From the NCBI GenBank assembly GCA_964489705.1, contig CAZAZQ010000008.1:4416-68415 (forward strand): DNA of 64,000 bases, read 5' to 3'. Of the stretch, positions 1 to 61,723 are shown one piece after another; positions within the stretch are counted from its first letter, which is position 1, and each line of letters starts with the position of its first letter. The notes under the pieces are model-generated. The model was not told the origin of the DNA. It worked only from the letters and a program-made list of their open reading frames with translations, and did not search any database. The translations under genes were made by a program, and so were the position numbers. The stretch comes from an uncultured Ignavibacteriales bacterium (GTDB lineage Bacteria > Zixibacteria > MSB-5A5 > GN15 > FEB-12).

Positions 1-39
1 GTTGAACTGGTGCCCGGAAAGTTGGAACACAGCATGCAT
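1..39 (-). CDS. rplU: 50S ribosomal protein L21, first 13 codons only (gene runs off the left edge)
   Basis: The reverse strand reads GGAGGA-N9-ATG CAT GCT GTG TTC CAA..., giving MHAVFQLSGHQFN. This resembles the conserved L21 N-terminus (E. coli MYAVFQSGGKQ). It is too short to appear in the ORF track. Confidence 0.5.
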   Translation of the reverse strand, partial: MHAVFQLSGHQFN

Positions 40-363
40 GGCAACATATCCTCCGAAAGAATTTCCAGCGTTATAGTTCACTTTAAGTTAAGGCGGTAAG
101 GTACGTTATTTCCTTAGGAAGTCAAGGCAATTCTTACGTCTCTCCTTCACCCCAACTCACCTCTTAAACGATTATCCCCCTTGAAGGTTCCAGAAGGCTG
201 AAAACACCTATGGTATTACGGGACAACAATACCACCTTCTTTTTCTTTTTTAGCGGGAATGACCTATCAGGTGAGCTTTGCTTTTCAGCGGTAACCCAAT
301 AGACACCCTGAGGGTGATTTATTACCTTATGGCAGGAAATAACGCATCTCATAGTAGGGAAAC

Positions 364-433
364 TCCGGAACGGATCCGCCTTTCTCTCACATTTATCTTG
401 GTAGGGCACGGTCTGGGACAGACCTGCCACTTT
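364..433 (-). repeat. 70-bp intergenic repeat unit, made of hairpin core H1 (GGCAGGTCTGTCCCAGACCGTGCCCTACC) plus a 40-bp tail
   Basis: By eye, the reverse complement is identical over 70 bp to 12212..12281. The core is an imperfect hairpin, GGCAGGTCTG / CAGACC-N-TGCC. Confidence 0.9.
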
Positions 434-498
434 CCTAATACCTACGAAGGTTCATTGTTAACGGGGAATAATAAGCCACCCTTTGGGTGCTGCTCAGT

Positions 499-1848: not shown

Positions 1849-2021
1849 AACCGAAATATACGTACATGCAGCAAATCGGACAATCACAAACCCCTCTTGG
1901 GTTCAGGCAGTAGTAATCACTGTAGCAGGTCTCTTTCGAGATCTAAGGATCCCACCGTGAGCGGTAGGAGATACCCCAAGCGTTATTTTTCAACTGTAAG
2001 GTTATAAATAACCCTTGGGGT

Positions 2022-2137
2022 GTCGGGAAAGGATTCCCGACCGCGTACACCCTAAGGGTGTTTTACTTTAGTTGTAGGGCATGGTCTGGTACAGACCTGC
2101 CACTTTACTTAACTCTTGGCAGGTCTCTTCGAGACAG
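2022..2137. repeat. Composite hairpin repeat with modules H2, H1 and H3
   Basis: H2 (2022..2071) is GTCGGGAA-N4-TTCCCGAC followed by CACCCTAAGGGTG and TTTTACTTTAG, and matches 12371..12420 at 46 of 50 positions. H1 plus H3 (2074..2137), ending in GTCTC-TTC-GAGAC, matches the reverse complement of 12181..12245 at about 61 of 65 positions. Confidence 0.85.
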
Positions 2138-2293
2138 TCGCTACTAATCTGATCTTACACATGAGATGATGATAAGACGCCTTGGGTGTGCTTCGACCGG
2201 GACAGGGATAATCCGTCCGCCTCGGTAAAACTCTTGACATAAGCAGTGGAGGAAGATACCTTGGAGTTAACACCTAATACCATAGGAGGAAAC

Positions 2294-2857
2294 ATGAAGC
2301 GTCTTTTTATTCCCACCGTCATTTTTTTGCTTGCCCTGGCGACTTCCGTCTCTGCCTTCGACGGCAACCGGAAAGGATTTGTCTTGGGTGGAGGTCTGGG
2401 TTTCGGTCCCTCGGCGAAAGTCACTGTCTCCGTGGGGAGTATTTCGGCTTCGGATGAAAACAGCGGCTTGGCGATAGATTTTCTTATCGGCTATGCGTGG
2501 GACGAACAGAACATGATTGTCTTCTTGCGGGACGGCATTATCTACAGCGAAGAGATGTCCCACAGCACCACGATTTCCATCGTGCAAGGATTTTCCGGCA
2601 TCGGCTACTTCCACTACTTTGGTGAGGTAGGCAAATCGTTTTTCATCACCGGTGGTTTGGGACTCCAAGACTGGACCTCCTTGGATGAAAATTACAGTTC
2701 CCCCGATCCGGGCGTCGGGCTTCTCCTCGGCGGCGGCTATGAGTTCACCCGACATCTTCAGGTGTATTCAAGCCTGTCTTTCGGCAAGACGAGCGAGGGA
2801 AGTTTCAAGAATGACCATTCTCAGTTTATTATTGTAATTTCGGCGGTCGCTTTCTAA
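2294..2857 (+). CDS. Small outer-membrane beta-barrel (porin-family-like) protein
   Basis: AGGAGGA lies 5 nt upstream of the ATG at 2294. The signal peptide is MKRLFIPTVIFLLALATSVSA. The sequence shows alternating Gly/aromatic beta-strand patterns and ends in a terminal Phe (ISAVAF). Confidence 0.6.
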   Translation: MKRLFIPTVIFLLALATSVSAFDGNRKGFVLGGGLGFGPSAKVTVSVGSISASDENSGLAIDFLIGYAWDEQNMIVFLRDGIIYSEEMSHSTTISIVQGFSGIGYFHYFGEVGKSFFITGGLGLQDWTSLDENYSSPDPGVGLLLGGGYEFTRHLQVYSSLSFGKTSEGSFKNDHSQFIIVISAVAF

Positions 2858-2906
2858 GCTCTGCGCTCATATTCCCGTCAAACATCCGGTTGGGAAAAAT
2901 CACAGG

Positions 2907-2945
2907 CTGCCGGACGACAAAGAGTCGTTCGGCAGTTTTGTCTTA
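2907..2945 (+). terminator. Rho-independent terminator after the OMP gene
   Basis: The hairpin CTGCCGGACGAC-aaaga-GTCGTTCGGCAG has a 12-bp stem with one G-U pair. It is followed by TTTTGTCTT. Confidence 0.7.
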
Positions 2946-2979
2946 TCGGTTCCCTATATCCTCCGTTCGTATGTTTTTG

Positions 2980-3007
2980 TTGAAATCCGCCTGCCGGTCG
3001 CTATTAT
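2980..3007 (+). promoter_or_regulatory. Putative sigma-70 promoter of the methylase gene, implying a leaderless mRNA
   Basis: TTGAAA (2980-2985), a 16-nt spacer, then TATTAT (3002-3007). The ATG at 3014 is only 6 nt after the -10 box. No Shine-Dalgarno sequence is present. Confidence 0.4.
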
Positions 3008-3013
3008 GCCGGC

Positions 3014-4000
3014 ATGAAGCGTACCTCTCTTGCCAAACTTGATCTTGTCGACCCGGAAGTTCGAGCGCGGCTCCTCCCGTATTGCCGCCTCAAACCGGGG
3101 GACATCTGGCGGGACGAGCGCTCGGGGCACGTCGTCGGATGTGGTGACGCCACCGACGCCGCCTTCGTTCATACCGTCCTGCACGGGCAACCCGCCCGGC
3201 TGGCGATACAGGACCCACCGTATAACGTGGCAATGTTCGAAAGACGAGAGGTGTCCGAGTATATTGCCTGGTGCCGGAAGTGGATTGACCTTTCCTACGA
3301 GATTCTGGCTGCCGACAGCGCTCTCTATGTCTGGCTGGGAGCCGACCAGAACAACCACTTTCAGCCGTTGCCGCAATTCATGTTGATGATGGCGCAGACG
3401 CCGTTTGAAGCACGCTCGTTCATTACCATGCGGAACCAGCGGGGATACGGCACCCAGAAAAACTGGATGGCGATTCGGCAGGAGCTGTTGTACTACACCA
3501 AGGGAAACCCGCCTTTCACGGTCCGGTACACCGATATTCCGAAAATTCTCCGAGGGTATTACAAGGACGTGGGAGGAGTACGCACCGAAAATCTCGAACG
3601 AAGCAAATCACCCACCATCCGTCCGGGGAACGTCTGGGTGGACATACAGCAGGTTTTTTATCGCTTGGAAGAGCATGTTCGGGGATGCCCGGCGCAAAAG
3701 CCGCTGAAAGCAATCAGACGGATAATCGAAGCCTCTTCTCTATCGGGCGACACGGTCGTCGATTTCTTTGCTCACTCGGGAACGACGCTGCTGGCGTGTG
3801 AGCTGACGGGACGAAAGAGTATTTCCCTGGAAATCGACCCTCTCTTTGCGGAAATCACTATCCGGCGTCTGGAACATTACCGAGCGACCGGCAAAACCGG
3901 CTGGCAGAGAGGGCATCCTTTCGAAAAGGAACTGGAAGTGTCGCTTTCTTCATCGTCAGCCGAGAAGAAGCGGGTACTGACCGCCGTAAACGTTACATGA
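3014..4000 (+). CDS. Orphan DNA methyltransferase, beta-class N6_N4 family (probably N6-adenine)
   Basis: Motif IV (IQDPPYNV) precedes motif I (VVDFFAHSGTTLLACELTGRKSISLEIDP). The N-terminus carries a GCGDATD motif typical of this family. No restriction endonuclease gene lies nearby. Confidence 0.85.
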   Translation: MKRTSLAKLDLVDPEVRARLLPYCRLKPGDIWRDERSGHVVGCGDATDAAFVHTVLHGQPARLAIQDPPYNVAMFERREVSEYIAWCRKWIDLSYEILAADSALYVWLGADQNNHFQPLPQFMLMMAQTPFEARSFITMRNQRGYGTQKNWMAIRQELLYYTKGNPPFTVRYTDIPKILRGYYKDVGGVRTENLERSKSPTIRPGNVWVDIQQVFYRLEEHVRGCPAQKPLKAIRRIIEASSLSGDTVVDFFAHSGTTLLACELTGRKSISLEIDPLFAEITIRRLEHYRATGKTGWQRGHPFEKELEVSLSSSSAEKKRVLTAVNVT

Positions 4001-4009
4001 GTAAGTGAG

Positions 4010-4495
4010 ATGGAAAAGTTGCAAGGGATTGTGCTCAAGTTGGACAATGGCGTGACTCTCGACTCGCTCCTGCCGGCAGGAGAAGAGAACAAGACACAAA
4101 GTATCGTCTCTCGACTGATGGAAACGCTTGGCAAAAATCAAACTTACTCCCAAGAGGCGGCTTATATTCTGGTAAGCGGCACGAATTTCGGAGGGGGCGA
4201 GAAATATCGGCAAGCGGTCGACGCTCTCAAGTCGTCTTCTGTCGTAGCCGTGGTGGCGGGGAATTTTTCGCGGGCATTTTTCCGACGGGCGCTGAACAAC
4301 GGGGTGGCGGTCATCGAAAGGGATATCACCGATCTGGTACAGGATGGGGAAACAATCACCATCGACCTTGCCGAAGGCAGGATAGAGCTGGCGCAACAAA
4401 AAGTGGCTTTTCCTTCGTATCCGCCGTTTCTTCTCTCTATCCTCGAGAGCGGCGACCTCATTGCTGCGACTAAGAAAGAGTTGGGTCGAGCCTGA
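4010..4495 (+). CDS. LeuD-like aconitase swivel-domain protein with a degenerate active-site motif
   Basis: The 161-aa length and layout match archaeal-type LeuD (ILVSGTNFG...VVAVVAGNFSRAFFRRALNNGVAVIE...DGETITIDLAEG). The canonical GCGSSREHA is replaced by GGGEKYRQA. No large subunit is present in the window. Confidence 0.55.
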   Translation: MEKLQGIVLKLDNGVTLDSLLPAGEENKTQSIVSRLMETLGKNQTYSQEAAYILVSGTNFGGGEKYRQAVDALKSSSVVAVVAGNFSRAFFRRALNNGVAVIERDITDLVQDGETITIDLAEGRIELAQQKVAFPSYPPFLLSILESGDLIAATKKELGRA

Positions 4496-4551
4496 GCGGC
4501 TTACTTTCCCTTTTCCGACCTAACAACCGCAATTTTTTCAAAAAAAGAGCA

Positions 4552-4581
4552 ACCCGGTGCCATAGTACCGGGTGTTATAAT
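4552..4581 (+). promoter_or_regulatory. Extended -10 promoter with an overlapping 7-8-7 dyad (candidate MerR operator)
   Basis: A perfect inverted repeat, ACCCGGT (4552-4558)-N8-ACCGGGT (4567-4573), is followed immediately by TGtTATAAT (4573-4581). The ATG at 4587 is 5 nt after the -10 box, so the transcript would be leaderless. Confidence 0.5.
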
Positions 4582-4586
4582 ACCGT

Positions 4587-5006
4587 ATGAATAAAGACGA
4601 GCTTACCACAAAAGAGGTCGCCCGCTTGGCGGGAGTCAACAGAGAAACGCTGCGCTACTATGAACGGGTCGGATTGCTGCCGGAGCCACCGCGTACCCCT
4701 GCCGGCTACCGTCGCTATACGCACGAAGAGGTGAAGCGTCTGCTTTTCATTAAGAATGCAAAGAGCTTGGGATTCAAACTCTCCGAAATCAAAGCGTTGC
4801 TCGGTATCGCCGACGGCGACATCAGCGGCTGCCGCGAAGTGCGGAAACTCGCCCAGGCAAACGTCAAGCGCATAGACGAGCAGATTGCTTCGTTGACCAA
4901 GTTGCGCGCGGTGCTGAGCGATTTAATTAGTCAATGTACGGGGAGAGGGAAAATAGCCGATTGCCCCATCATAGAAAGCCTTACCCGAAAGGAGGAGAAA
5001 TCATGA
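4587..5006 (+). CDS. merR: MerR-family transcriptional regulator with a mercury-type cysteine triad
   Basis: The N-terminal helix-turn-helix is TTKEVARLAGVNRETLRYYERVGLL. By my count the cysteines fall at residues 82, 117 and 126 (GC82REV, SQC117TG, ADC126PIIESL). These positions and the CP(L/I)I motif match Tn501/Tn21 MerR. Confidence 0.85.
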   Translation: MNKDELTTKEVARLAGVNRETLRYYERVGLLPEPPRTPAGYRRYTHEEVKRLLFIKNAKSLGFKLSEIKALLGIADGDISGCREVRKLAQANVKRIDEQIASLTKLRAVLSDLISQCTGRGKIADCPIIESLTRKEEKS

Positions 5007-5317
5007 AGGTCGAGTTCTTGTACTTTGGTTCGTGTCCCCATTACCGGCACGCCTTGGAAAGGTTGCAAGAGAGTCTGGAAGAACTATCGCTTCCCGACGA
5101 AATCACCTCCATCAAAATCAACAATAACGAGGAAGCCGCCCGCTTTCGCTTTCTGGGATTGCCGTCTATCCGCATCAACGGGAAAGACATCGAAGGAGAT
5201 GACCCGCCTTTGAACGACTATGCGGTGCGCTGCCGTCGGTATAAAACAGAGAGCGGGTGGGAGGGGGTCCCTTCCAAGGAGATGATAAAAGCCGCTTTGC
5301 AGCAAGCCATGGCATAA
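5003..5317 (+). CDS. Small thioredoxin-fold (DUF2703-like) protein
   Basis: AAGGAGGAG lies upstream of the ATG at 5003, and an ATGA overlap joins it to the merR stop. The motifs FGSCPHY and LGLPSIRINGKDIE resemble glutaredoxin/thioredoxin_3-like small proteins. Confidence 0.55.
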   Translation: MKVEFLYFGSCPHYRHALERLQESLEELSLPDEITSIKINNNEEAARFRFLGLPSIRINGKDIEGDDPPLNDYAVRCRRYKTESGWEGVPSKEMIKAALQQAMA

Positions 5318-5618
5318 CCAACCTATCAACCCTTTATATCCGGCAGGACGCTCTCGTGGAGACTCTGCCGGCGAGTTAGAGATAGAGAATGGCAGGTCTG
5401 TACCAGACCATGCCCTACCAAAACTGCCGTCGGTATAAAACAGAGAGCGGGTGGGAGGGGGTCCCTTCCAAGGAGATGATAAAAGCCGCTTTGCAGCAAG
5501 CCATGGCATAACCAACCTATCAACCCTTTATATCCGGCAGGACGCTCTCGTGGAGACTCTGCCGGCGAGTTAGAGATAGAGAATGGCAGGTCTGTACCAG
5601 ACCATGCCCTACCAAAAC
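5231..5618 (+). repeat. Perfect tandem duplication, 2 x 194 bp
   Basis: By eye, 5231..5424 and 5425..5618 are identical. Each unit holds the last about 29 codons of the thioredoxin-like gene, its stop codon, and one H1 hairpin core (5391..5419 and 5585..5613). Confidence 0.9.
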
Positions 5619-5647
5619 TCTGACGGAAGGAAAAAATGGCAGTCATC

Positions 5648-5719
5648 GGTAGGGAAGCTCGAGAGAGACCTGCCCATAAGATAGGAGAATGGCAGGCCTG
5701 TCCCAGACCATGCCCTACC
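5648..5719 (+). repeat. Third local H1 hairpin core, preceded by a degenerate inverted half-copy
   Basis: GGCAGGCCTGTCCCAGACCATGCCCTACC lies at 5691..5719. A degenerate GGTAGGGAAGCTCGAGAGAGACCTGCCC lies at about 5648..5676. Confidence 0.7.
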
Positions 5720-5759
5720 AAGACCAGATGGTCTTCTAAATAAGGAAGAAGCGCCACTT

Positions 5760-6851
5760 TTACTTTTCGGAGGCGGCGTTGATTTTTGTAAGAAAGGCTT
5801 GGACTTTGTGGCGGCGTACATACGACTTGAACACCAGCACCAAAATCACGAGCATTGCGGAAAATCCACCCGCAAAGAGGACATATTTGGAGAGAGTGTT
5901 GAGCAACTCATCGGTCTGGTCGGTCGAGGAGATATACCCGAGTTGATGGAGATAGACCGGGATGTCTATCGCCCGGCTGATGACACAGAGCAAAATAATA
6001 GCACCGGTAATCAAGCGAATCATTCTTTCTTTACAGACCTTGGTGCCGTAAGCGCCGATGTAAATGCCGGTGAGGGAGCCCAGGTACAGAAGAAAGACCA
6101 AACGTAAATCGACAAAACCGCCCATGGCATAGTTGAACGCTCCCCATGCTCCCATAAAGACCGCAAGGAACAATTGGGTACCGGCGGCAACAGCGGTAGG
6201 GACGCCGAAAATGTAAATCATGGCGGGAACGCCGATGAGTCCGCCCGCCCCAATAGTACCGGTCAAGTAGCCGTTGAAAAATCCCACCAGAGCAATCGTC
6301 CAAAACGACAGGCGCACCTCCGCTACCGGGAAGGAAATCATCGGTGGGATTTTCACCTTGGAAAAAAGCTCCGCCAGCTTGGTGGAGGGACCTTCTCCCG
6401 TAACCCGTTTGCGCACGACATCACCCAAAAGGGCAAGAGAAACAAGGGAGAGGATAAGGACGAACACGGCGCTGATATACAAATCTCCCGCTGCCGCCCC
6501 GGATTTTATGTCATGTCCGCCCTTCCGCAAGTGGAAGAGGGTCTCGTTTATCCAGAACGCGAGCTTGATGCCGATGAGGGCGGTAATCAGAATAAACATG
6601 CCGAGCTTTTTGTCCACGTGCCCCATCTCGCTGTGTTTTTTCGAGCCCATGATGGCTTTGCCGAATTTGTGAGTCAAATTCGAACCGACAGCGATGACAC
6701 CCGGGATACCCAAATTCATCATACCGGGCGTGATGAAGAACGCCCCGCCGATACCGATAAAACCGCTCAAGACGCCGCCGATGAACCCCAAGGCAATAAC
6801 TTGAAAAATCATCGAAAGGTCTAATGTTGCGAATCCTTCCACGCCGAGCAT
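5760..6851 (-). CDS. TauE/SafE (TSUP) family anion-export membrane protein
   Basis: The protein is polytopic and hydrophobic, with duplicated Gly-rich motifs (GIGGAFFITPGM and GAGGLIGVPAMIYIFG) characteristic of the TSUP family. Confidence 0.8.
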   Translation of the reverse strand: MLGVEGFATLDLSMIFQVIALGFIGGVLSGFIGIGGAFFITPGMMNLGIPGVIAVGSNLTHKFGKAIMGSKKHSEMGHVDKKLGMFILITALIGIKLAFWINETLFHLRKGGHDIKSGAAAGDLYISAVFVLILSLVSLALLGDVVRKRVTGEGPSTKLAELFSKVKIPPMISFPVAEVRLSFWTIALVGFFNGYLTGTIGAGGLIGVPAMIYIFGVPTAVAAGTQLFLAVFMGAWGAFNYAMGGFVDLRLVFLLYLGSLTGIYIGAYGTKVCKERMIRLITGAIILLCVISRAIDIPVYLHQLGYISSTDQTDELLNTLSKYVLFAGGFSAMLVILVLVFKSYVRRHKVQAFLTKINAASEK

Positions 6852-6862
6852 GAAATTCTCCT

Positions 6863-8368
6863 CTAATCAATCCAAAACAATCTGAGCACCTGGCGGGTGA
6901 GCGTCCCGTACGAGTAGGCAAAAAGCGGCGTGACAATCATCACTCCAATCGCCGCTATCAACCGGTAGGCTTTGTACTGTTCGCCGGAAAGAAAAGCCAA
7001 GACTTCGCGTTGGAAGTGAAACAAGCTTACCAACATCGCCGCAGAGATAAACAAGCCGACGATTATTTTCAGCACTTGCCCAGGTGTAATGCGAAAACGC
7101 CGCTGCAACTCTTCCACTTCGACGATGGGAACGTTGATGTTGTCATTGAGGTAATTTTTCAGCTCGTCTTTCAAACGGCGACGGGTGGCTTCCGAGCGAT
7201 TCCGGAAAAGCTCGCCCAGCACTATGATGTCATACCGGTTCCGGTGAATCCGAGTGACCAACGCTTTTGCGTTGCCACAAAATGCGGAGCTTCCTCCCAA
7301 GCAGTTGAGCCGTCGCAACTCCGCCAGGCAGCAGTAATATTCCTTCAGCGAAAAAGGAGAGGGCTCGGCAGGTTTTTTCCGGGAATCCGTCTTCCCCTGC
7401 GCCGTATTCTTAGAAGCGGTCAACTCGTCAAGCAGCTCATCCGGCGTCGACAACCTGTCCGAGGGAGCATACCGCATCAATTCCACCGCCGCATCCCACT
7501 TTTTCGCTACCTGCGCCACTTCCCGGAAGTTCGAATCATCGCAGGAAAACTCGTCCTGCAAAAATAAAATGCTTCTATCGGCGATAGTCGTATTGACCGC
7601 TTTTATCTCCGGCACCCGAGAGAGCACCTCGCTGACATACATCGCTACTTTCGACTCCAGCGGGGGATACGTTACCTGGACGACTCCGTTATCCGCCGAG
7701 ACCCGTACGTCGGCGATGTTTGTCCGCGGGTCTTTGGTCAACTCGAAATGTGCTTTGCTGGCGAGGTAGAGATTTTTAATCGCTTCTTCGGTTTCTGAGT
7801 TCAAAGCGAAATCGGGCAGCTTCGCCAGCGCCTTCAACCCCACCACGGCGTTGTTGAGTCCCATCTGGTCGAGATGGACAACAATATCATAGAGAGCGGG
7901 ATCGTTCCAATCGACCCCATAGAGAAAGCGTACCCACTTTTCCCGCTCTTCGTCCACTTTGCGGATATATTCTTTTGCTTCTTCCCGACTCAAGCCCATC
8001 GTCCGTATAACCGAGGTGATGCGAAACTCCGGATGCGCCAGCACTCGGATGCGGAGAATGTTCGGTATCCCGCACAACAGCATGTGCGCGGCGTGACCGT
8101 AATACACAACATCTCCCCGCAATATCTGTTCGGTCAGCAGCATCGTCAGACATGCCAAGTACTGATTGCGCTCGGCTTCCATCTGCCGATAAAACCGCGG
8201 CGGCTTGGACATCGCCGCTTCCAACGTATCCGCCGGGACTCCCAACTGTATCGCCTGTTCGATGAGATCTTCCCGACTGATGCAAACGCAGCCCAACTCC
8301 CGAGCCAAACGCTCGGCAAGCTCCTTGCCCCCAGCCAAAGTTCCACGGGATACGGTAATTATAGCCAT
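6863..8368 (-). CDS. Cytidylate-kinase-like (P-loop kinase fold) protein with a C-terminal two-helix membrane anchor
   Basis: The N-terminus MAIITVSRGTLAGGKELAERLARELGCVCISREDL is typical of the cytidylate-kinase-like family. A BON-like segment follows (DVRVSADNGVVQVTY). Two C-terminal hydrophobic helices are present. The ORF track extends to a TTG at 8404. Confidence 0.65.
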   Translation of the reverse strand: MAIITVSRGTLAGGKELAERLARELGCVCISREDLIEQAIQLGVPADTLEAAMSKPPRFYRQMEAERNQYLACLTMLLTEQILRGDVVYYGHAAHMLLCGIPNILRIRVLAHPEFRITSVIRTMGLSREEAKEYIRKVDEEREKWVRFLYGVDWNDPALYDIVVHLDQMGLNNAVVGLKALAKLPDFALNSETEEAIKNLYLASKAHFELTKDPRTNIADVRVSADNGVVQVTYPPLESKVAMYVSEVLSRVPEIKAVNTTIADRSILFLQDEFSCDDSNFREVAQVAKKWDAAVELMRYAPSDRLSTPDELLDELTASKNTAQGKTDSRKKPAEPSPFSLKEYYCCLAELRRLNCLGGSSAFCGNAKALVTRIHRNRYDIIVLGELFRNRSEATRRRLKDELKNYLNDNINVPIVEVEELQRRFRITPGQVLKIIVGLFISAAMLVSLFHFQREVLAFLSGEQYKAYRLIAAIGVMIVTPLFAYSYGTLTRQVLRLFWID

Positions 8369-8498
8369 AAATCGATATGCACGAGCCTCATGCGGTTGTT
8401 TCAACCGTTTTTGCTTGTTTTTTCCGCCATGATTGCTTCAAAATATGGTATATTTATACCGAAGTGCAAGCGCTTATTGAAATTCGAGTGAGTTTTCG

Positions 8499-9635
8499 AT
8501 GACGAAAAAGGAAGACCGCACAATCGAACCGGTGGAGCAGCAGTCCACCGACCGGATTATCTCTTTCAAATTGCTGCAACTTAACGTGCACTATGCTTTA
8601 ACCCACAGCTTTTACGCCCTTCAGGTAATGGAGGGCTTGCTCCAGCGGGAAAAGAGCACTCCCCTTGACCGGCAGGCTGCCGCCGAAACGGCGGTCGATG
8701 TTCATGATGCGATTTCCAAAGCCGCCTTTTACGTCAACGCCATCACGAAGGGAGCACATGTCGATGTGTACTTGAAGCTGGATAAGCTCAAAGAGAAAAT
8801 CATCACCTTGTTCAAAACCCCCGAGCCCGGCGTGGGCGGTGCATCGTCAAGAGCCTCAACCTCTTCCGACGACGAAACGCTTGCCATGCTGCGCTCGCTC
8901 CTTGCGGCGCAGAAAGAAGACACGGCTGCCGCACCCATGACGGTGACGGAACCTCCCGAGACATTGAAACAGTTGCTCTGGTACTGTTTCCACGTGCTGC
9001 TCGACGCTTTGCAAGCTCGTCTTCAACCGGTGTTTGATGGAGCCGCACACTCTTCCCTCCGCCACCCCCTTCGGGCTCTCCCTATCGGATATCTTGATAA
9101 AGACACGCTCCTTGCCGAGCATGAAGATGCCGATTTCGATGTCACCCCCTACCAAGCTCCGAATGAGGCAACCCAGGCGTTGCTTGCCGGTTTTGAGGAA
9201 GTCACTCAGTCACACCTTTATGAGACTCCCTCGCTTGGTACGGTTGAAAAAAATGTGGGTGTGCTTTTGTACTCCAAAGACACCGTGACATTGTACCACC
9301 TCACGAGCCGCTTTCGCACCATTATCGTCGCCAACAGCTTCGAAGCGGTCAGCGGCAATTATATTTATTTGCTGGTCGAACCGCTCATGGCGGCGCCGAC
9401 ACGAGAGTTTTACGACTTGATGATAGTGAAGATTCTCTACTGGCTGGATTTTGTGACGTTTCCCTCGCCGAGCGTCACTTTTGCCGGGATAAAGAATCTA
9501 ACGTATAATGAAATGAAAAGTCACGTGAATATGCTGGGGAAAATGCTTGCCTTTGCCAATGCTCCGACCGTGACCCCGACTACCACGGCGGAGGCGCAAC
9601 AGCAAGTCGAAGTATTTTGGGAGAGGGTTGTGTAA
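8499..9635 (+). CDS. Hypothetical protein (378 aa, no recognisable domain)
   Basis: This is a long ORF transcribed divergently from the kinase-like gene. It ends 6 nt before the next gene. Its composition is coding-like. Confidence 0.6.
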   Translation: MTKKEDRTIEPVEQQSTDRIISFKLLQLNVHYALTHSFYALQVMEGLLQREKSTPLDRQAAAETAVDVHDAISKAAFYVNAITKGAHVDVYLKLDKLKEKIITLFKTPEPGVGGASSRASTSSDDETLAMLRSLLAAQKEDTAAAPMTVTEPPETLKQLLWYCFHVLLDALQARLQPVFDGAAHSSLRHPLRALPIGYLDKDTLLAEHEDADFDVTPYQAPNEATQALLAGFEEVTQSHLYETPSLGTVEKNVGVLLYSKDTVTLYHLTSRFRTIIVANSFEAVSGNYIYLLVEPLMAAPTREFYDLMIVKILYWLDFVTFPSPSVTFAGIKNLTYNEMKSHVNMLGKMLAFANAPTVTPTTTAEAQQQVEVFWERVV

Positions 9636-9641
9636 GCCGGA

Positions 9642-12167
9642 ATGTTGTGGGTGAATAAAAAGAAGCGGCGCGAGCGGGTGCTGGAATTGGAAAAGCGGTT
9701 CCGCTGGAAGCTGGAAAATTTACGACACCTGCTGCGTTTGAACAGCTACCTGATGGAAGTGCTCTCCGATGTGCAATCGTTCGTCGGTGAGCGGGTTCCC
9801 AACGACGACTACACCTACCACCAGATATCCGATCTCGTGGAGGGGGTGGCGCTGATGATAGAGTGCCTCGACAATCTGACCGACGGCGAGTTCCATGAGT
9901 TGTATTATCGGCACCGGCAGATCAGCGGGAAAATCCAGTTTCTCCTGATGCAGAACAAAACCAAGGGGGAGCCGGTCTTTGTCCGTTCGCTTGATGAGGT
10001 TTCCCGGAGCGACATCAACGAAGTGGGCGGAAAGGCGGCTCACCTTGGCGAGCTGAGAAAAGTTCTTCCCGACCATGTCCCTCCCGGCTTCGTCGTCACC
10101 ACCTCGGCGTACCACCGCCTATTGAACGAAAACAACCTCGACGGTCAAATCCGCGCCTTGTATGCCACTATCGAGACGGACGACCTGCCGCACGTCAAGG
10201 AAGTCTGTGCGGAGATAAAACGTTACGTGGAGAACAGCCTTATTCCCGAACCGGTCATGGAGGAAATCGAAAAGCACCTTGGAGAAACCTGTCCGCAGCA
10301 GGGATGTACCTGGGCGGTACGCTCCAGCGCCGTCGGAGAGGACGGTTCTCTCTCTTTTGCCGGGCAGTTCGAGAGCATTCTCAACGTTCCCCCACCCAAA
10401 GTGGCAAATGCGTATGTGAAAGTTCTCGCCAGCCGGTTCAATCCACATGCCGTATTGTACCGCCTCGAGCACAACATCACCGAAGCGGAAAGCTCCATGG
10501 CGGTGCTGTTCATTCCGATTATCCGGGCGGCGGTGTCGGGAGTCATTTACACCGTCGACCCGCACCATCCGGAGAGCAACCGGATGGTCATCTCTGCCGT
10601 TCCCGGTTTGGCGGCGGAGCTGGTCGGCGGTTCGGCGCAAGCCGACTCGTTTTACCTCAATCGGGAGAGCTTGACAATCGAAGAGCATAAAACTGCGGCG
10701 AAAAAGACAAAGCTTGTCACAGCCGAGGAAGGGCTTGCCCAACAGGAAATACCCCAAGACCGGCAAACCGAGCTTTCTCTGACTTCTCGGCAGGCGGCTG
10801 AGTTGGGGAAATTGGCGCTGAAAATTGAAGATTACTTCGGTACTGCCAGCGACATTGAATGGGCAATTGACGAGCAGGGGAAGTGCTGGATTTTACAATC
10901 CCGCCCTTTGAAACTGCGTCGACAAGAGAGAATCGATTCCGATATTCCCCAGGACAGCAAACTGCTGGCGGAAGGCGGGGTGACCATTTACCCGGGACGG
11001 GCGCAAGGACGCTTGCAATACCTCCCCACCCTCGACCAGCTCAATAAAGTCGAGCCGGGAGTCATTTTGTTGGTGCGGGATGCGCTGCCGCAGATCGTTT
11101 CCGTCTTCCCGCGCTTGGCAGGCTTGATTACCGAAGTAGGGCATCCCACCGGTCATGCCGCTACCTTGGCGCGCGAATACAACCTGCCGACCATTTTCAA
11201 CCTCCCCAACGCCTGCGAGGAACTCAAAGAGGTCAGCGAGGTCGGCTTGGATGCTTCCCGGCGGCGCGTCTATGCGGGGCTGCCGTGGCCCGACCTGCCG
11301 CAAAAGAGCGTCCGCAGGGAAAAGTCTGCTGCTAAAAAGGAAGGCACCTTGGACGAGTTGCTTTTCCGGTTGAATTTGGTGGACACGGCGGCGGGGAATT
11401 TTTCGCCCGAAGGGTGTCAATCGCTGCACGACATGATTCGCTTCATCCATGAGAAAGCGGTGACCGCGCTTTTTGATATCGGAGACGACCAAGTCAAAAA
11501 TCTGAAAGAAAATCTCCTCCTGTTGGATACCCCTATCCCGCTGCACCTGACGGTGCTCGATATCGGCAGAGCTATCGAGGAACGACTTATCCGTAAGAAG
11601 AAAATCCCGCCGGAAGGGATTCAATCCATTCCCTTCCGGGCGTTGTGGCGAGGGATTCGTCATCCCGACCTTCGCTGGGCGGGACGCCAGAGCGTGAGCC
11701 TGTCGGGATTGGCGTCGGTAGTCATGTCTTCCATGAATGAGGAAATCCAAGCCGCCCGGCAACTGGGAGCCCGGAATTATCTTATCGTCAGCCGTGACTA
11801 TCTCAATTTCAACGCCCGCCTGGCGTATCACTATTCTATGATAGATGCTTTGGTGTGCGAACGGTGTGTCAACAATTACATCAGTTTCCGTTTCCGCGGC
11901 GGCGGTGCGGCCCGAGCCCGGCGCGGGCTGCGCGCCAAATTTATTGCGGGAGTGTTGTTGTATGAAGGGTTCTCCGTCGATAGGCGGGAAGACCTCGTCA
12001 CGGCGTGGTACAAGGGGTACAACAAAGAAGAGTGCGAAAAGCGGCTGGAGATGCTCGGCATTCTTATGGGCTGCGCCCGCCAGCTCGATATGCTCTTCGA
12101 CAGCAAAGCCAAGGTCAAGTTCTACATTGAGCAATTCCTGGAAGGAAACTACCAGGCTTTCCATTAG
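9642..12167 (+). CDS. PEP synthase/PPDK-like phosphotransferase: ATP-grasp domain, swivel phosphohistidine domain and an unknown C-terminal domain
   Basis: The PPDK_N motif is INEVGGKAAHLGELRK and the swivel domain is GLITEVGHPTGHAATLAREYNLPTI. The last roughly 300 aa lack the PEP-binding TIM-barrel motif seen in the true PtsI of this window (GTNDLTQY). Confidence 0.8.
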   Translation: MLWVNKKKRRERVLELEKRFRWKLENLRHLLRLNSYLMEVLSDVQSFVGERVPNDDYTYHQISDLVEGVALMIECLDNLTDGEFHELYYRHRQISGKIQFLLMQNKTKGEPVFVRSLDEVSRSDINEVGGKAAHLGELRKVLPDHVPPGFVVTTSAYHRLLNENNLDGQIRALYATIETDDLPHVKEVCAEIKRYVENSLIPEPVMEEIEKHLGETCPQQGCTWAVRSSAVGEDGSLSFAGQFESILNVPPPKVANAYVKVLASRFNPHAVLYRLEHNITEAESSMAVLFIPIIRAAVSGVIYTVDPHHPESNRMVISAVPGLAAELVGGSAQADSFYLNRESLTIEEHKTAAKKTKLVTAEEGLAQQEIPQDRQTELSLTSRQAAELGKLALKIEDYFGTASDIEWAIDEQGKCWILQSRPLKLRRQERIDSDIPQDSKLLAEGGVTIYPGRAQGRLQYLPTLDQLNKVEPGVILLVRDALPQIVSVFPRLAGLITEVGHPTGHAATLAREYNLPTIFNLPNACEELKEVSEVGLDASRRRVYAGLPWPDLPQKSVRREKSAAKKEGTLDELLFRLNLVDTAAGNFSPEGCQSLHDMIRFIHEKAVTALFDIGDDQVKNLKENLLLLDTPIPLHLTVLDIGRAIEERLIRKKKIPPEGIQSIPFRALWRGIRHPDLRWAGRQSVSLSGLASVVMSSMNEEIQAARQLGARNYLIVSRDYLNFNARLAYHYSMIDALVCERCVNNYISFRFRGGGAARARRGLRAKFIAGVLLYEGFSVDRREDLVTAWYKGYNKEECEKRLEMLGILMGCARQLDMLFDSKAKVKFYIEQFLEGNYQAFH

Positions 12168-12608: not shown

Positions 12609-14045
12609 ATGTCGTCTCATATTAACGAAATTTCATCACCGAGCATTGAAAATATATCATTGGGGCAATTACCGGAGCTTCTTATCGGTGCCGATACGGT
12701 CGTGCCGACGCTGCACGGCTCGCAACGCTACGTCAACTTCGACAACGCCGCCTCAACACCGACTTTTCAACCTATCGCCGACGCCGTCATGGATTTTCTG
12801 AAATGGTATTCCAATGTCCATCGGGGCACCGGCTTCAAATCGCAGCTTTCCAGTTGGGCGTTTGAGCGCTCCCGCGATCTGGTGGCGGAATTCATCAAAG
12901 CCGACCTCGACAAGCAGGTGGTTATCTTTACCATGAATTCCACCGAAGCCATCAACAAACTCTCCCGCCGCTTCCCTCTCAAAGAAGACGACATCATTCT
13001 GACCACTCTTATGGAGCACCACTCCAACGAGCTGCCGTGGCGGCGGGCGGGAAAGGTGGAGCATGTCGGCTTGGAAATCGACGGCACCATCTCCAAGTAT
13101 GACTTCCTGTCCAAGATTACCGCTTTCGGCTCGCGCATCAAGCTGGTGGCGATGAGCGGTGCCTCGAACGTGACGGGGTATATCAACGACATTGATTTCT
13201 TTGCCGAAAAAGCGCACGAAATCGGAGCGAAAATCTTGGTCGATGCCGCCCAGTTGGCGCCGCACCGTCCTATCGATATGAAGCCGGATGACCCCAAGCA
13301 CTGTATCGACTTTCTTGTCTTTTCCGCCCATAAGATGTATGCGCCGTTTGGAGTGGGTATCTTGGTGGGTGACAAAGCCATCTTCGAGCAAGGTGACCCG
13401 GAGACGGTTGGGGGAGGGGTGGTGGATATTGTAACGCTGGAGGATGCCTACTGGACCGACCTGCCGGAAAAAGAAGAAGCCGGCACGCCGGATATCGTCG
13501 GCGTGGTGGCGCTGGGCAAGGCGATCCGTTTGTTCCAATCGCTGGGTTGGGAAGCGGTTATTCAACATGAAGCCGAACTGACCGCTTACGCTCTCGAGCA
13601 ACTGGAAAAAATACCCGCCGTTACCCTCTACGGCGACACCGACCCGAAAAACGCCGCTCAACGGTTGGGGGTTATTTCTTTCAATATTGTCGGCGTTCCT
13701 CACGCTTTGGTGGCGGCGATACTCAGTTACGAAGGAGCCATCGGGGTACGGGCGGGGTGTTTTTGCGCCCATACGTATGTGAAGTCCTTGCTCCATGTTC
13801 CCGAGGAAGAATCGAAAGCCATCGAAGAGCAGATTTTGGCGCGCGACCGCTCAAACATTCCCGGGGCGGTGCGAATATCGTTTGGGTTGTACAACACCAA
13901 AGAGGAAATCGACCGGCTCATCGAAATGGTGCGCAAAATCGCCGACGGCGACTACAATAGTGAGGACTATATCCTCAACAAAGAAAAAGGTGAGTATACC
14001 CACAAGAGTTTTCAGTTTGACTTTGAGAAGTATTTTAGGCTATAA
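12609..14045 (+). CDS. Class V aminotransferase / cysteine desulfurase-like PLP enzyme
   Basis: GGAGG lies upstream of the ATG. The PLP-lysine motif is [17 protein letters not shown]. The N-terminal NFDNAAST and the overall SufS/CsdA-like layout are present. Confidence 0.85.
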
Positions 14046-14046
14046 T
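14017..14046 (+). promoter_or_regulatory. Near-consensus sigma-70 promoter embedded in the 3' end of the upstream gene, driving the ATPase gene as a leaderless mRNA
   Basis: TTGACT (14017-14022), an 18-nt spacer, then TATAAT (14041-14046). The ATG at 14054 is 7 nt after the -10 box. No Shine-Dalgarno sequence is present. Confidence 0.5.
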
Positions 14047-14053
14047 TATTTGT

Positions 14054-15283
14054 ATGAGCAAGTTAAACGAAAAGAAAAAAACCGTCCCTCGCATTGAAGA
14101 GCTAAGGGTTCGGAACTACCGAGCTCTTCGTAATCTCAAACTTACAGACCTTACCCCTTTGACTGCTTTTGTTGGTCCCAACGGAAGTGGAAAATCAACG
14201 ATTTTTGACGTATTTGCTTTTTTATCAGAATGTTTCACCGCTGGCTTGCGGCGAGCGTGGGATAAACGGGGAAGATTCAAGGAGCTTCTTACCCGTGGTG
14301 CAGAAGGGGAAGTTGTCATTGAATTGAAATACCGAGAGCGAAAAGACCTACCTCTCCTTACTTATCATCTGGCAATCCATGAGAAAGACAGAGTTCCCTT
14401 TGTAGCTGAGGAGTGGTTGGCATGGCGGAGAGGGGCACGGGGAAAGCCATTTCGTTTTTTGGAATTCAAGGAAGGGCAGGGGCGTGTTGTCTCTGGTGAG
14501 CAACCCGAAGAAAAGGATGAAAGGATAGACGAGCAACTGGACTCTCCCGAAGCTTTGGCTGTCAATACCCTCGGTCAGTTCACAAAACATCCTCGAGTGA
14601 GCGCCCTCCGTCGTTTCATCACTAGTTGGCATCTCTCATACTTCACAGCCGACCATACACGTAAAATTCCCGAGGCAGGCTCTCAAGAACATTTGTCCCA
14701 AACAGGAGATAATCTTCCCAATGTCATTCAATACCTTAACGAACAACATCCTCAACGTTTGGAAGAAATCCTCTCTATACTCAAGCAACGTGTCCCGCGA
14801 CTTGACAAGATTCAAACGGAATTTCTTGCCGATGGAAGATTGCTTCTCCAAATAAAAGACGCTCCATTCGATGAGCCTATTTTGGCAAAGTTTGCTTCGG
14901 ATGGAACTCTCAAGATGCTTGCCTATCTTACACTCCTCTATGACCCAGATCCTCCCCAGCTCATCGGTATTGAAGAGCCTGAAAATCATCTTCATCCCCG
15001 CCTCTTGCCCGAGCTTGCAGAAGAATGCCGGAAAGCTTCCGAACATTCTCAAATTTTGGTCACTACTCATTCCCCTTTCTTCGTAAACGGCTTGCGTCCT
15101 GAGGAAGTTTGGTCAATTTACCGAGATAAAAACGGATTCACTCAAGCCCGTAAAGCGTCGGAAATGAAGAGTATTTCAGACCTTATAAATGAGGGAGCGA
15201 ATTTGGGCTACCTTTGGACAGAAGGTTTTTTTGATTCTGGAGATCCTCTTACTAATGCTGGCGAGCCTTTGGAAGAAGAATAA
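14054..15283 (+). CDS. ABC/OLD-type AAA ATPase (AAA_15/AAA_21-like)
   Basis: Walker A is [14 protein letters not shown], the signature-like motif is [11 protein letters not shown], Walker B/D-loop is [16 protein letters not shown] and the H-loop is LVTTHSPFF. Confidence 0.85.
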
Positions 15284-15301
15284 GTTCCGCTTCAAACTAA
15301 C

Positions 15302-15937
15302 ATGATGTCTCCAGGAGTAGAACCATTGTTTCTTTCATTTTTCGTTGAGGAGAAGTCAGCGGAAATCACTCTGCGGAATATTATCCCCAAAATGGTAGGG
15401 GGTGAGTGCAAATTCAGAATCCTTTCCTTTCAAGGAAAGTATGATTTGTTGAGTAAACTGCCGCATTACTTAAAAAGCTATCCGAAATCACTTCCCGACA
15501 ATTCGTACATAATAGTTTTGATCGACAGAGACAATGATGATTGTCGGTTACTCAAACAGAAGCTCGAAGCTATAGCTAAAGAAACGGGACTCTTTACAAA
15601 GAGCAATCCTGACCCCCACGGACGTTACCAGGTCATCAACCGAATTGTCATTGAAGAACTCGAAGCTTGGTTTTTTGGTGACATTGATGCGATTCAAGCA
15701 GCATACCCGAGAATTATCTCCCGGAGGCTTGGTAGGAAGCAGCCCTATAGAGATCCCGATGCTATTTCCGGGGGAACATGGGAAGCTTTAGAGAAAGAAC
15801 TCAAAAAGGCTGGCTATTACCGTAATGGTATGCCTAAAATTGAAACTGCCCGGAAAATCTCAGAGTATATGCTACCTATACGGAATAGATCAAAGAGCTT
15901 TCAAGTTTTCATGAATACCTTGAAGGAGTTGTGCTAA
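15302..15937 (+). CDS. DUF4276-family protein (Toprim-like, putative nuclease partner of the ATPase)
   Basis: It carries an N-terminal Glu (FFVEEKSAE), a DxD motif (VLIDRDNDDC) and IEELEAWFFGD. Together these give the Toprim-type acidic pattern recalled for DUF4276. It starts 18 nt after the ATPase stop. Confidence 0.75.
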   Translation: MMSPGVEPLFLSFFVEEKSAEITLRNIIPKMVGGECKFRILSFQGKYDLLSKLPHYLKSYPKSLPDNSYIIVLIDRDNDDCRLLKQKLEAIAKETGLFTKSNPDPHGRYQVINRIVIEELEAWFFGDIDAIQAAYPRIISRRLGRKQPYRDPDAISGGTWEALEKELKKAGYYRNGMPKIETARKISEYMLPIRNRSKSFQVFMNTLKELC

Positions 15938-16010
15938 ACGTTCAAGTTTGATAAAATACAGGTTCAATAAGAAATGTTATTATCGGATGCTGGTTACGGA
16001 GGGAAAAAAG

Positions 16011-16400
16011 ATGGCGATGATACGACGTATCTGGGATGTGACCCTCACCGTCGAAGATCTGCAGAAAGCCGTCGACTTCTATGAAAACATCCTTGGGCTG
16101 CAAAAGAAGTATCAATTCAAAGATTATGCGGGTTTCGACTGCGGAGGGGTTGAAATAGGACTGAAGACGTGGGGCGAGCGCGAAAACCCTCGCAAGGGCG
16201 AGCCGATGTTCGACCTGTTGGTAGACGATGTCGATGAGATCTATCGCACCCTCAAAGACAAGGGCGTAGAATTCGTCGAGCCGCCCAAAGATACGCAATG
16301 GGGCAGTCGAGCGGCGGCGGTGAGCGACCCTGACGGGCATGTCATCGGCTTGATGCAAATATACTGGGACAAGTATTTCCAAGCCTGCGCCCCGAAATAA
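16011..16400 (+). CDS. VOC/glyoxalase-bleomycin-resistance family protein
   Basis: GGAGGG lies upstream of the ATG at 16011. The motif VTLTVEDLQKAVDFYENILGL and the ending ...AAVSDPDGHVIGL are typical of the VOC fold. Confidence 0.8.
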   Translation: MAMIRRIWDVTLTVEDLQKAVDFYENILGLQKKYQFKDYAGFDCGGVEIGLKTWGERENPRKGEPMFDLLVDDVDEIYRTLKDKGVEFVEPPKDTQWGSRAAAVSDPDGHVIGLMQIYWDKYFQACAPK

Positions 16401-16475: not shown

Positions 16476-17234
16476 TTATTTTCTTTCCTGCTCATGCCGG
16501 AAGCGGATACCGCCGTTGTGGAACTCAATCAGGCGGCGAGGCTTGTTTTGTGCCGCCGGGTCGACGCATTGATTGGGCGCTCCGGTACGATTGGGGAAGA
16601 GGGCGGTACTGTTGGTCTTTTCCGCACTGTTGCCGTAATAATCAAAAACTTGGGCGGAAATTGCCAAGACGTTTCCCGACATGTTGGCAATCGTGTTGTC
16701 GGTGCAGTCCTCCCAGAAGAAAAACACCTGTGCCACCGTATCTGGGATGCGGCGGTACAAGCCGGGGGCAAGGACAAGTTTGACCAGGGAAGCGGGACGT
16801 TCGAAGTTGTAACAACGCGGCTTGGCTTTGCCGGGACCTAACTTGGCTAATCCCACCGCTTGCCAGACGGTGCGCGGGTAGTTTTCTTTTTCGGCGGTGT
16901 TTATCTGCCGGGCTTTGAAATATTCCCACTCGCAGGAATCGCAAATTTCCCCCGGAAGTACCTCGACAATGTCGAGGTAGGGACTCTCGAGAGCAAACTT
17001 CAAGTCGAAAGCGGCTATCGGCTCGCCGAAGGAGTTGAGAGTAATCGCCAAAGTGTCGGTCGGTTTTCCTTCCCTGACCGTACTCCGTTGAATGGAGACG
17101 ACATAGTGTCCGCTGTCGGCAAAAGCGGCGGAAAAATCGGGCGGAGGAAGTGGTTCGCTCTGTTTTTCACTCAGTCCCGCCAGAGACCACCAGAAGGCAA
17201 GCGGAAGTATGAACGGAAGGACGGCACAGCTCAT
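16476..17234 (-). CDS. Secreted hypothetical protein with a cohesin-like segment
   Basis: An N-terminal signal-like hydrophobic region is present. The segment IAAFDLKFALESPYLDIVEVLPGEI resembles the cohesin pattern (gfdf.i.yd...l.vv.v..G). The similarity is weak. Confidence 0.45.
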   Translation of the reverse strand: MSCAVLPFILPLAFWWSLAGLSEKQSEPLPPPDFSAAFADSGHYVVSIQRSTVREGKPTDTLAITLNSFGEPIAAFDLKFALESPYLDIVEVLPGEICDSCEWEYFKARQINTAEKENYPRTVWQAVGLAKLGPGKAKPRCYNFERPASLVKLVLAPGLYRRIPDTVAQVFFFWEDCTDNTIANMSGNVLAISAQVFDYYGNSAEKTNSTALFPNRTGAPNQCVDPAAQNKPRRLIEFHNGGIRFRHEQERK

Positions 17235-49007: not shown

Positions 49008-49081
49008 CGGGGTGTAGCGCAGTCTGGCAGCGCGCTTGCTTTGGGAGCAAGATGTCGGAGGTTCAAATCCTCTCACCCCGA
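49008..49081 (+). tRNA. tRNA-Pro (anticodon UGG)
   Basis: I folded the cloverleaf by hand. The acceptor stem is CGGGGTG/CACCCCG and the D arm is GCGC-AGTCTGGCA-GCGC. The anticodon stem is CTTGC/GCAAG with loop TT-TGG-GA. The T arm is GGAGG-TTCAAAT-CCTCT. The discriminator is A, and no CCA is encoded. Confidence 0.9.
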
Positions 49082-60548: not shown

Positions 60549-60572
60549 GGGTTCCCCCACCAATTAGGGTGT

Positions 60573-61094: not shown

Positions 61095-61153
61095 ATGCTT
61101 TATAACCTCCGCTCAGGGAAATTGACTTTCATTTCTTTTCTTTCGTGTTTACC

Positions 61154-61182
61154 AATCTAATCGATACCCCCATAGGGGTCAA
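61154..61182 (-). promoter_or_regulatory. Putative sigma-70 promoter of pal
   Basis: The reverse strand reads TTGACC, a 17-nt spacer, then TAGATT. The spacer contains the palindrome ACCCC-TATG-GGGGT. Confidence 0.4.
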
Positions 61183-61694: not shown

Positions 61695-61723
61695 TTGACA
61701 ACCGATTGTTGAAGGTATAGAAT
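61695..61723 (+). promoter_or_regulatory. Near-consensus sigma-70 promoter inside the 1-kb non-coding region
   Basis: TTGACA (61695-61700), a 17-nt spacer, then TAGAAT (61718-61723). The direct repeat GGTATAGAA occurs at 61714 and 61731. Confidence 0.5.

Follow-up and report, generated by a model that had tools for sequence, protein, structure and literature searches.

A two-gene HEC-01 operon between housekeeping genes

We analysed a stretch of 64,000 nucleotides (nt) of contig CAZAZQ010000008.1 from an uncultured Ignavibacteriales bacterium, referred to here as the window, and concentrated on two adjacent genes that encode an OLD-family ABC ATPase and a DUF4276 protein. A preliminary description made from the sequence alone had presented this gene pair as an uncharacterised, horizontally acquired anti-phage module. 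The listing of open reading frames (ORFs) contains two co-directional ORFs on the plus strand, the first of 409 amino acids (aa) and the second of 211 aa (15302..15937). Their spacing of 18 nt is as had been described; it becomes 42 nt if a TTG codon at 15326 is used as the second start. Pfam searches identified the upstream flanking gene as a class-V aminotransferase (Aminotran_5, E = 1.7e-89) and the downstream one as a Glyoxalase/VOC protein (E = 4.3e-21), in agreement with the SufS-like aminotransferase and VOC protein named previously. The pair is solitary here, between housekeeping genes.

The ATPase contains, in order, a Walker A motif (GPNGSGKST, residues 41–49), an ABC signature (SDGTLKML, 282–289), a Walker B motif (303–310) and an H-loop (TTHSP, 337–341), and all of the ABC motifs read earlier from the sequence are present at sensible positions. 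Both Pfam profiles that had been proposed for this protein matched above their gathering scores, AAA_21 with E = 2.4e-31 (110.4 bits) and AAA_15 with E = 6.5e-22 (79.1 bits). The PADLOC run that had also been proposed gave a match to HEC-01A (PDLC04182) with E = 1.7e-171 and 568.7 bits, in which residues 12–397 aligned to positions 2–404 of the 406-position model. Other PADLOC ATPase models were far weaker (AriA, 4.7e-32; AbiLi, 1.2e-27; mad3, 7.9e-26; NsnB, 1.7e-19; PtuA, 3.5e-17). Among PDB sequences, the ATPase matched PtuA (1.6e-9), the OLD nuclease 6p74 (8e-9), SMC and Rad50.

The second protein matched Pfam DUF4276 (PF14103), as anticipated, with E = 3.9e-30 and 106 bits (cut-off 30.2), from position 1 to 191 of the 192-position profile. 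Its PADLOC match was to HEC-01B (PDLC04202, E = 3.2e-80), residues 11–210 aligning to positions 3–200 of 204. No AriB, RloB or GajA model of PADLOC and no NCBIfam model matched this protein, and the DUF4435 and Toprim profile searches suggested in the preliminary description likewise returned no DUF4435, AriB or Toprim-clan match. As the HEC-01A and HEC-01B matches are nearly full length, other models are far weaker and the two genes are adjacent on the same (plus) strand, we conclude from these profile comparisons that the pair is a member of the candidate family catalogued in PADLOC as HEC-01. The same comparisons set the locus apart from PARIS, Gabija, MADS, AbiL, Menshen and Septu, to none of which it belongs.

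HEC-01 (Hma-embedded candidate 01) was discovered inside Hma systems and consists of an ABC ATPase with a TOPRIM protein (Payne et al., bioRxiv 10.1101/2024.01.29.577857). DUF4276 appears among the partner domains in the AAA15/21 ATPase tree figure of the PARIS structure paper, and a survey of BREX systems found TOPRIM-linked OLD-ABC dyads to be widespread and called them 'backup suicidal effectors'. The Pfam and PADLOC matches support the previous placement of this OLD/ABC-type ATPase and its DUF4276 partner within the ABC-ATPase plus Toprim-like defence theme. The word 'uncharacterised' stands for the mechanism and fails for the family, which is catalogued as HEC-01 and of which representatives have been tested twice. 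Architecture and horizontal origin had thus been rightly read, and novelty had been overstated. The coordinates of the features are collected in Table 1.

Table 1. Features of the HEC-01 locus, with positions in the window
Feature	Position	Strand	Remarks
OLD-family ABC ATPase (HEC-01A)	14054..15283	+	409 aa, intact; PADLOC and Pfam matches, motifs
DUF4276 protein (HEC-01B)	15326..15937	+	203 aa from the probable start TTG 15326; 211 aa from ATG 15302
Putative sigma-70-like promoter TTGACT-18-TATAAT	14017..14046	+	11/12 consensus positions
AGGAG Shine-Dalgarno sequence	15313..15317	+	8 nt 5' of TTG 15326, the probable second-gene start
Low-GC tract	13950..16050	unstranded	composition scans

Two ORFs near the island had no Pfam match at E <= 1e-5; these are 8499–9635 on the plus strand (378 aa) and 16476–17234 on the minus strand (252 aa).

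Foreign composition and boundaries of the island

The lowest GC content of the 64 kb was found in the 2-kb segment 14001–16000 (0.44, versus 0.48–0.58 elsewhere). GC at third codon positions (GC3) was 0.40 in the ATPase gene (z = -3.5) and 0.44 in the DUF4276 gene (z = -2.9), relative to a mean of 0.64 and a standard deviation of 0.07 over 48 ORFs, and these two genes were the strongest compositional outliers among the genes of the window. The six 60-nt G+C counts made previously by hand (19, 22, 21, 33, 39 and 30) were all exact on recount. A compositional break is therefore present in the full scan, for which the preliminary description had called, and the foreign composition seen in both GC and GC3 bears out its claim of horizontal acquisition.

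The C-terminal tail of the aminotransferase (...F-DF-x-YF-x-L-stop) is kept in dozens of orthologues without the pair. Judged from this comparison, the AT-rich final 100 nt of the aminotransferase gene are native host sequence. Because the tail is conserved without the pair, the foreign DNA appears to begin directly after the intact host stop codon, and from the sequence we place the foreign DNA proper at about 14046 to 16010. No convincing flanking repeats were found at the edges of the island, nor were an integrase, a tRNA gene or another mobility signature, and there was no Rfam match within it.

More than 150 loci with an orthologous flanking gene do not contain the pair. Genome and metagenome collections were scanned with the flanking aminotransferase in search of an empty site; no comparable site was obtained, because the nearest relatives of the flanking gene were 71% identical and did not share synteny. 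The closest relatives of the ATPase (70–75% identity) are dispersed over unrelated phyla. We conclude that the island is an intact cassette acquired by horizontal transfer.

A functional tie of the pair to the upstream cysteine-desulfurase-like gene was considered and dropped, as this gene has host composition and many of its orthologues occur without the pair. In Synechocystis pSYSM (5612–8549 of the examined stretch) the pair likewise lies directly 3' of a cysteine-desulfurase-family (Aminotran_5) gene. Identity between the pSYSM and window aminotransferases is only 23% and the one in the window looks native; for these reasons the adjacency shared by pSYSM and the window (12609–15937) is probably a coincidence.

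Promoter, start sites and leaderless expression

The promoter in front of the ATPase gene had been recognised in the preliminary description, and its position and its 11/12 agreement with the consensus were confirmed. It had been placed within the end of the upstream gene. This is correct for the -35 box, which lies in conserved host codons (F-D-F) at the end of the aminotransferase gene, but the -10 box overlaps the aminotransferase stop codon. Three promoter matches of at least 11/12 occur in the window, compared to 0.33 expected from Markov-1 simulations. As one of the other two precedes tRNA-Pro and the remaining one lies in an ORF-free stretch 5' of a gene, the consensus seems to be meaningful in this host.

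The match before the tRNA gene (TTGACA-17-TATACT, 11/12) is at 48967, directly 5' of the only tRNA gene of the window, tRNA-Pro(TGG) at 49008–49081. The region 60000–63000 is a stretch of lower GC (0.48) in which about 970 nt (61095–62061) contain no ORF of at least 100 aa. A TTGACA-17-TAGAAT promoter match is found at 61695 within this ORF-free segment, which has no Rfam family match.

The ATG of the ATPase gene is 7 nt 3' of the -10 box and no Shine-Dalgarno-like 4-mer precedes it, both as reported earlier. A -10-like hexamer was present 5–9 nt before the start codon in 5 of 43 window genes, versus 0.39 expected (P = 4e-5). This excess suggests that the host uses leaderless mRNAs fairly often. 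The genes with a TATAAT-like hexamer near the start are those at 3014, 4587, 14054, 35684 (minus strand, start at 37081) and 62062, and among these five the ATPase gene seems to be the best leaderless example. From this arrangement the ATPase is probably made from a leaderless transcript that starts at or next to its ATG.

A different start appears to be used for the second gene. DUF4276 homologues begin at a position matching TTG 15326, the AGGAG sequence is located 8 nt upstream of this codon, and the NCBI gene call is 203 aa. On these grounds TTG 15326, with a Shine-Dalgarno sequence of its own, is the probable translation start of the second gene rather than ATG 15302. The 211-aa ORF described previously does exist; the probable protein is the 203-aa form.

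Distribution and genomic contexts

At least 8,000 homologues of the ATPase were found, and the best 120 matches were all 70–75% identical; the phyla represented among these 120 include Thermodesulfobacteriota, Omnitrophota, Acidobacteriota and Cyanobacteria. The DUF4276 protein gave 1,255 matches in a 90%-clustered database. Conservation differed between the partners, as the best DUF4276 matches were 51–60% identical compared to the 70–75% of the ATPase. A profile search of 1.84 billion representatives yielded 2,028 DUF4276 clusters at 50% identity; the best 150 of these 2,028 matches were all close relatives, with no remote relative of DUF4276 among them. Matches were present in 10 of 72,556 plasmid records and in one phage-like record.

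Twelve genomic contexts were compared, namely the window and 11 external ones. The ATPase gene was directly 5' of the DUF4276 gene in all 11 external contexts, and defence genes, conflict genes or mobile elements were neighbours in 7 of the 12. On plasmid pMtWR-220 of Meiothermus taiwanensis the pair is inside a type I restriction-modification (R-M) operon with the order hsdM-DUF262-hsdS-DarT-macro-ATPase-DUF4276-hsdR. Three modules lie between hsdM and hsdR in this stretch (1–11644 of that examined): a DUF262 protein, a DarT/macro module that is DarTG-like, and the ATPase–DUF4276 pair. The Geminocystis pair adjoins an EcoRV R-M system and a DUF433/DUF5615 toxin–antitoxin (TA) pair, and in Synechocystis pSYSM the pair is located amid RelE/HigA, HEPN/MNT, HNH and phosphorothioation-associated genes.

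On plasmid PRA1 of Rahnella aquatilis HX2 (6262–11548 of the stretch) a lambdoid prophage carries a divergent pair in its accessory-gene slot, with the antiterminator on one side and the lysis genes on the other; the DUF4276 protein of this pair is 31% identical. An island on a metagenome contig (L168, 10001–16837) contains two complete pairs 5 kb apart, along with DUF3800, a transposase and a BglII-like nuclease. Genes for SLFN_AlbA_2, DUF3800 and Fic-like proteins lie between the two pairs of this contig, and the BglII-like endonuclease gene precedes both pairs. In Oscillochloris the pair adjoins FGE-sulfatase, AAA, bpMoxR and fvmX7 genes, and in Sodalinema it adjoins an nSTAND1 NTPase. The neighbours in a Pseudanabaena plasmid are housekeeping genes except for an IS630 transposase about 7 kb away. 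In a further context (L166, 10001–13131) an IS3-type insertion sequence (IS) element (HTH_Tnp_1 and rve) interrupts the DUF4276 gene, and the ATPase gene is intact.

Comparison with known systems

The pair in the window has the gene order and the ABC ATPase/TOPRIM-like architecture of HEC-01. HEC-01 as discovered is embedded in Hma, whereas the window copy lies outside any defence system. PARIS resembles the pair in its split two-gene layout, in which an OLD-type ABC ATPase is followed by a small Toprim-type effector. However, the PARIS effector AriB is a DUF4435 protein and the effector of the window is a DUF4276 protein without an AriB or DUF4435 match in PADLOC or Pfam, and the ATPase matches AriA via the generic AAA_21 profile only. 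In PARIS the ATPase scaffold frees the nuclease upon a trigger and the nuclease cleaves tRNA (PARIS structure paper; BREX survey). Among split ATPase/Toprim systems only PARIS is well understood, and it offers the best model of how such a pair could act.

P2 Old, class 1 OLD proteins and Gabija GajA resemble the window pair in having an ABC ATPase of the OLD family and an acidic metal site of the E...DxD kind, and a profile comparison between the Toprim region of P2 Old and the window DUF4276 protein was weakly positive. In class 1 OLD proteins and GajA the ATPase and Toprim domains are fused, whereas two separate ORFs are found here. Gabija also requires the helicase GajB, and no helicase is encoded within 10 kb on either side of the pair.

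Mad3 of MADS is a related ATPase (PADLOC mad3, 7.9e-26; NCBIfam MAD3, 2.7e-36), but the window ATPase reaches 125.6 bits with the MAD3 equivalog model and fails its cut-off of 420. Although Mad4 has been described as a DUF4276 homologue (PMC12065111), the window DUF4276 protein matches no Mad4 model, and no methyltransferase or other mad gene lies near the pair. AbiL (AbiLi ATPase and the RloB protein AbiLii) and Menshen (NsnABC) also combine an OLD-type ATPase with an effector of the Toprim superfamily, and the C-terminal domain of some Menshen NsnC proteins is DUF4276 (PMC12065111). The window has no RloB domain, NsnA or NsnC, and the AbiLi and NsnB matches were much weaker than those to HEC-01. 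Septu differs in that its partner is the HNH protein PtuB rather than DUF4276; the PtuA match amounted to 47 bits against a cut-off of 500.

Predicted structure of the DUF4276 protein

The acidic motifs on which the Toprim-type label had been based are present in the second protein, with FFVEEKS at residue 13, IDRDNDD at 74 and IEELEAWFF at 117. In an alignment of 35 sequences the invariant residues are E16/E17, D75-x-D77 and E118-E119-x-E121-x-W123-x-x-G126-D127. In a confident AlphaFold model (pLDDT 88, pTM 0.86), the N-terminal part is an alpha/beta core of four strands and the C-terminal part a helical domain. The predicted layout is strand 9–15, helix 18–32, strand 36–42, helix 46–58, strand 68–75, helix 81–94 and strand ~111–117. 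Taken together with the alignment, the model places E16/E17 and D75-x-D77 at the ends of strands 1 and 3, respectively, and E118-E119-x-E121 after strand 4. Toprim metal ligands have been named as a Glu after strand 1 and a DxD after strand 3 (PMC12065111), so the invariant E and DxD of the predicted structure match these positions.

The DUF4276 alignment (Neff 4.4) was compared by hhalign to an alignment of the P2 Old Toprim region and gave P = 0.0066, versus 0.11–0.13 for reversed-sequence controls. FFVEE was paired with LLVEG, QGK with DGK and EAWFFGDID with IYIWKSGDIE. The P2 Old template was shallow because a diverse OLD-Toprim profile could not be built: the homologue search returned five fragments, two scans of viral contigs gave mostly relatives of 62–100% identity, and a plasmid tblastn search for relatives of this region found nothing.

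Proposed function and alternative explanations

We propose that the locus is a horizontally acquired, intact HEC-01 operon that most likely serves as a stand-alone PARIS/OLD-type module directed against phages or mobile elements, a view that we hold with somewhat more than even confidence. This proposal builds on the family identity, the intact catalytic motifs, the foreign composition, the strict pairing of the two genes and the frequent defence or mobile-element neighbourhoods, and it draws from the literature the Toprim assignment and the protection conferred by one representative. By analogy with PARIS and OLD, an oligomer of the ATPase would act as the infection sensor and would hold or license the DUF4276 nuclease. 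A phage cue would then release or activate this nuclease, as in PARIS, and the active, metal-dependent enzyme would cut nucleic acid (tRNA or DNA) and thereby abort the infection. The division into sensor and effector, the nuclease substrate, the abortive outcome and activity in this host are all inferred. A different HEC-01 cluster, cloned in a study of cold-seep metagenomes (Nat Commun 2026, PMC12881386), is reported to protect E. coli B from one or more of the phages T7, T5 and T4.

Several observations weigh against this proposal. Another HEC-01 representative did not protect E. coli against a subset of the BASEL phages (10.1101/2024.01.29.577857), and the literature examined contains no biochemical data on any DUF4276 protein. 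In the window and four other contexts the neighbours are housekeeping genes and there are no defence genes. Judged from the sequence identities, conservation of the ATPase is unusually high for a defence sensor. Our own Foldseek and HMM searches also yielded no Toprim match. When the full model was compared to the PDB by Foldseek, the best E was 0.068 and the top 50 contained no Toprim protein, and comparison to BFVD gave nothing significant and no viral Toprim protein. The core-only model likewise retrieved no Toprim protein in the top 50 from the PDB. The best matches in these three comparisons were generic alpha/beta sandwiches of the flavodoxin/lumazine-synthase kind. A DUF4276 hidden Markov model (HMM) profile found nothing among PDB sequences, and a permissive Pfam scan of the 35 members matched no Toprim-clan family. 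In the hhalign comparison to P2 Old, P was only 0.0066 and the DxD motifs were out of register.

One alternative is that HEC-01 is an accessory or backup effector that depends on a restriction-like system such as Hma, type I R-M, BREX or MADS, in which case the window copy would be a functionless orphan. The discovery of HEC-01 embedded in Hma (10.1101/2024.01.29.577857) fits this explanation, as do the Meiothermus pair within a type I R-M operon, the description of OLD-ABC/TOPRIM dyads as backup effectors in the BREX survey, the membership of Mad3 and Mad4 in the eight-gene MADS system and the lack of defence by an isolated HEC-01 in one test (10.1101/2024.01.29.577857). However, both window genes are full length with every catalytic residue intact, and stand-alone pairs recur in unrelated genomes, which argues for autonomy. 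The 70–75% identity of the ATPase across phyla implies strong purifying selection that includes stand-alone copies, and a cloned HEC-01 cluster was protective alone (PMC12881386). We therefore consider an orphaned accessory effector unlikely.

The pair could instead be a selfish, TA-like addiction module, in which a DUF4276 toxin restrained by the ATPase would be kept by post-segregational killing. Pfam labels AAA_21 as 'putative AbiEii toxin, Type IV TA system', plasmid-borne pairs are found beside classical TA modules, and single pairs lie between housekeeping genes in the window and in the contexts L166, L167 and L198. The IS-split nuclease gene in L166 is what would be expected of a costly gene. 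On the other hand, a TA role and abortive-infection defence can coexist, and phage protection by one HEC-01 has been reported (PMC12881386). Embedding in an R-M operon and in a prophage moron slot suits defence better than plasmid stabilisation, and matches occur in just 10 of 72,556 plasmid records. Addiction as the primary role is accordingly rather improbable.

Because the ATPase is 70–75% identical where its partner is 51–60% identical, and because the pair is often solitary among housekeeping genes, we also considered that these proteins form a clade with a role other than PARIS-like abortive infection. Such a clade might be an autonomous mobile addiction cassette, or it might carry out nucleic-acid surveillance with a conserved, host-derived trigger in place of a fast-evolving, phage-derived one, and the substrate or activation of its effector might be unlike those of OLD, Gabija and PARIS. 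This possibility is likewise rated low.

A further alternative concerns the fold. DUF4276 could be another Mg-binding alpha/beta domain, receiver-like or flavodoxin-like, with a regulatory or phosphoesterase role unlike that of the PARIS and OLD effectors. In Foldseek the core-only model came closest, with TMq values of 0.57 at most, to lumazine synthase, a designed Rossmann fold, flavodoxin and receiver-like domains, and neither a Toprim-clan Pfam family nor a PADLOC Toprim model was matched. The modelled core is a generic flavodoxin/Rossmann-like alpha/beta sandwich, which is compatible with Toprim and not specific for it. However, two independent papers place the fold in Toprim by structure comparison with OLD (6NK8) and RNase M5 (10.1101/2024.01.29.577857; PMC12065111). 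Payne et al. (bioRxiv 10.1101/2024.01.29.577857) found the HEC-01 metal site conserved in an alignment with B. pseudomallei OLD, and the Menshen study assigned DUF4276 and RloB to the Toprim superfamily, with Mad4 of MADS as a DUF4276 homologue (PMC12065111). The invariant E that follows strand 1 and the DxD that follows strand 3 make up the Toprim signature, and the hhalign score exceeded its controls with VEE/VEG, QGK/DGK and W-x-x-GD aligned. In addition, an obligate OLD-type ATPase partner is a known Toprim context. A non-Toprim domain is thus quite unlikely. DUF4276 is likely to be Toprim on the basis of motif placement and the two published structure-based assignments, rather than of our own fold comparison; the earlier Toprim-type label stands as regards the acidic motifs and the invariant E and DxD, and it gained no Toprim match from Foldseek or HMM searches.

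Finally, a housekeeping pair for DNA repair or recombination, comparable to RecF/RecN-type ATPases with the Toprim-containing RecR, would account for the weak N-terminal RecF, SMC and Rad50 matches and the unusual conservation of the ATPase, but it is very improbable given the patchy distribution and foreign composition of the pair, its absence from the >150 loci with an orthologous flanking gene, its presence on plasmids and in a prophage, the occurrence of IS disruption and tandem duplicates, and repair-family scores far under the curated cut-offs.

Significance of the locus

The existence of the window copy leaves current understanding unchanged; it adds one intact, stand-alone example of a very widespread ATPase–nuclease pair (2,028 clusters at 50% identity). 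Its main use would be as a clean, minimal test construct of 2 kb, because it brings its own plausible promoter and lacks defence genes as neighbours. As the results with HEC-01 are mixed, biochemistry on any member would be useful for establishing the activity of DUF4276, its substrate and the cue to which the ATPase responds.

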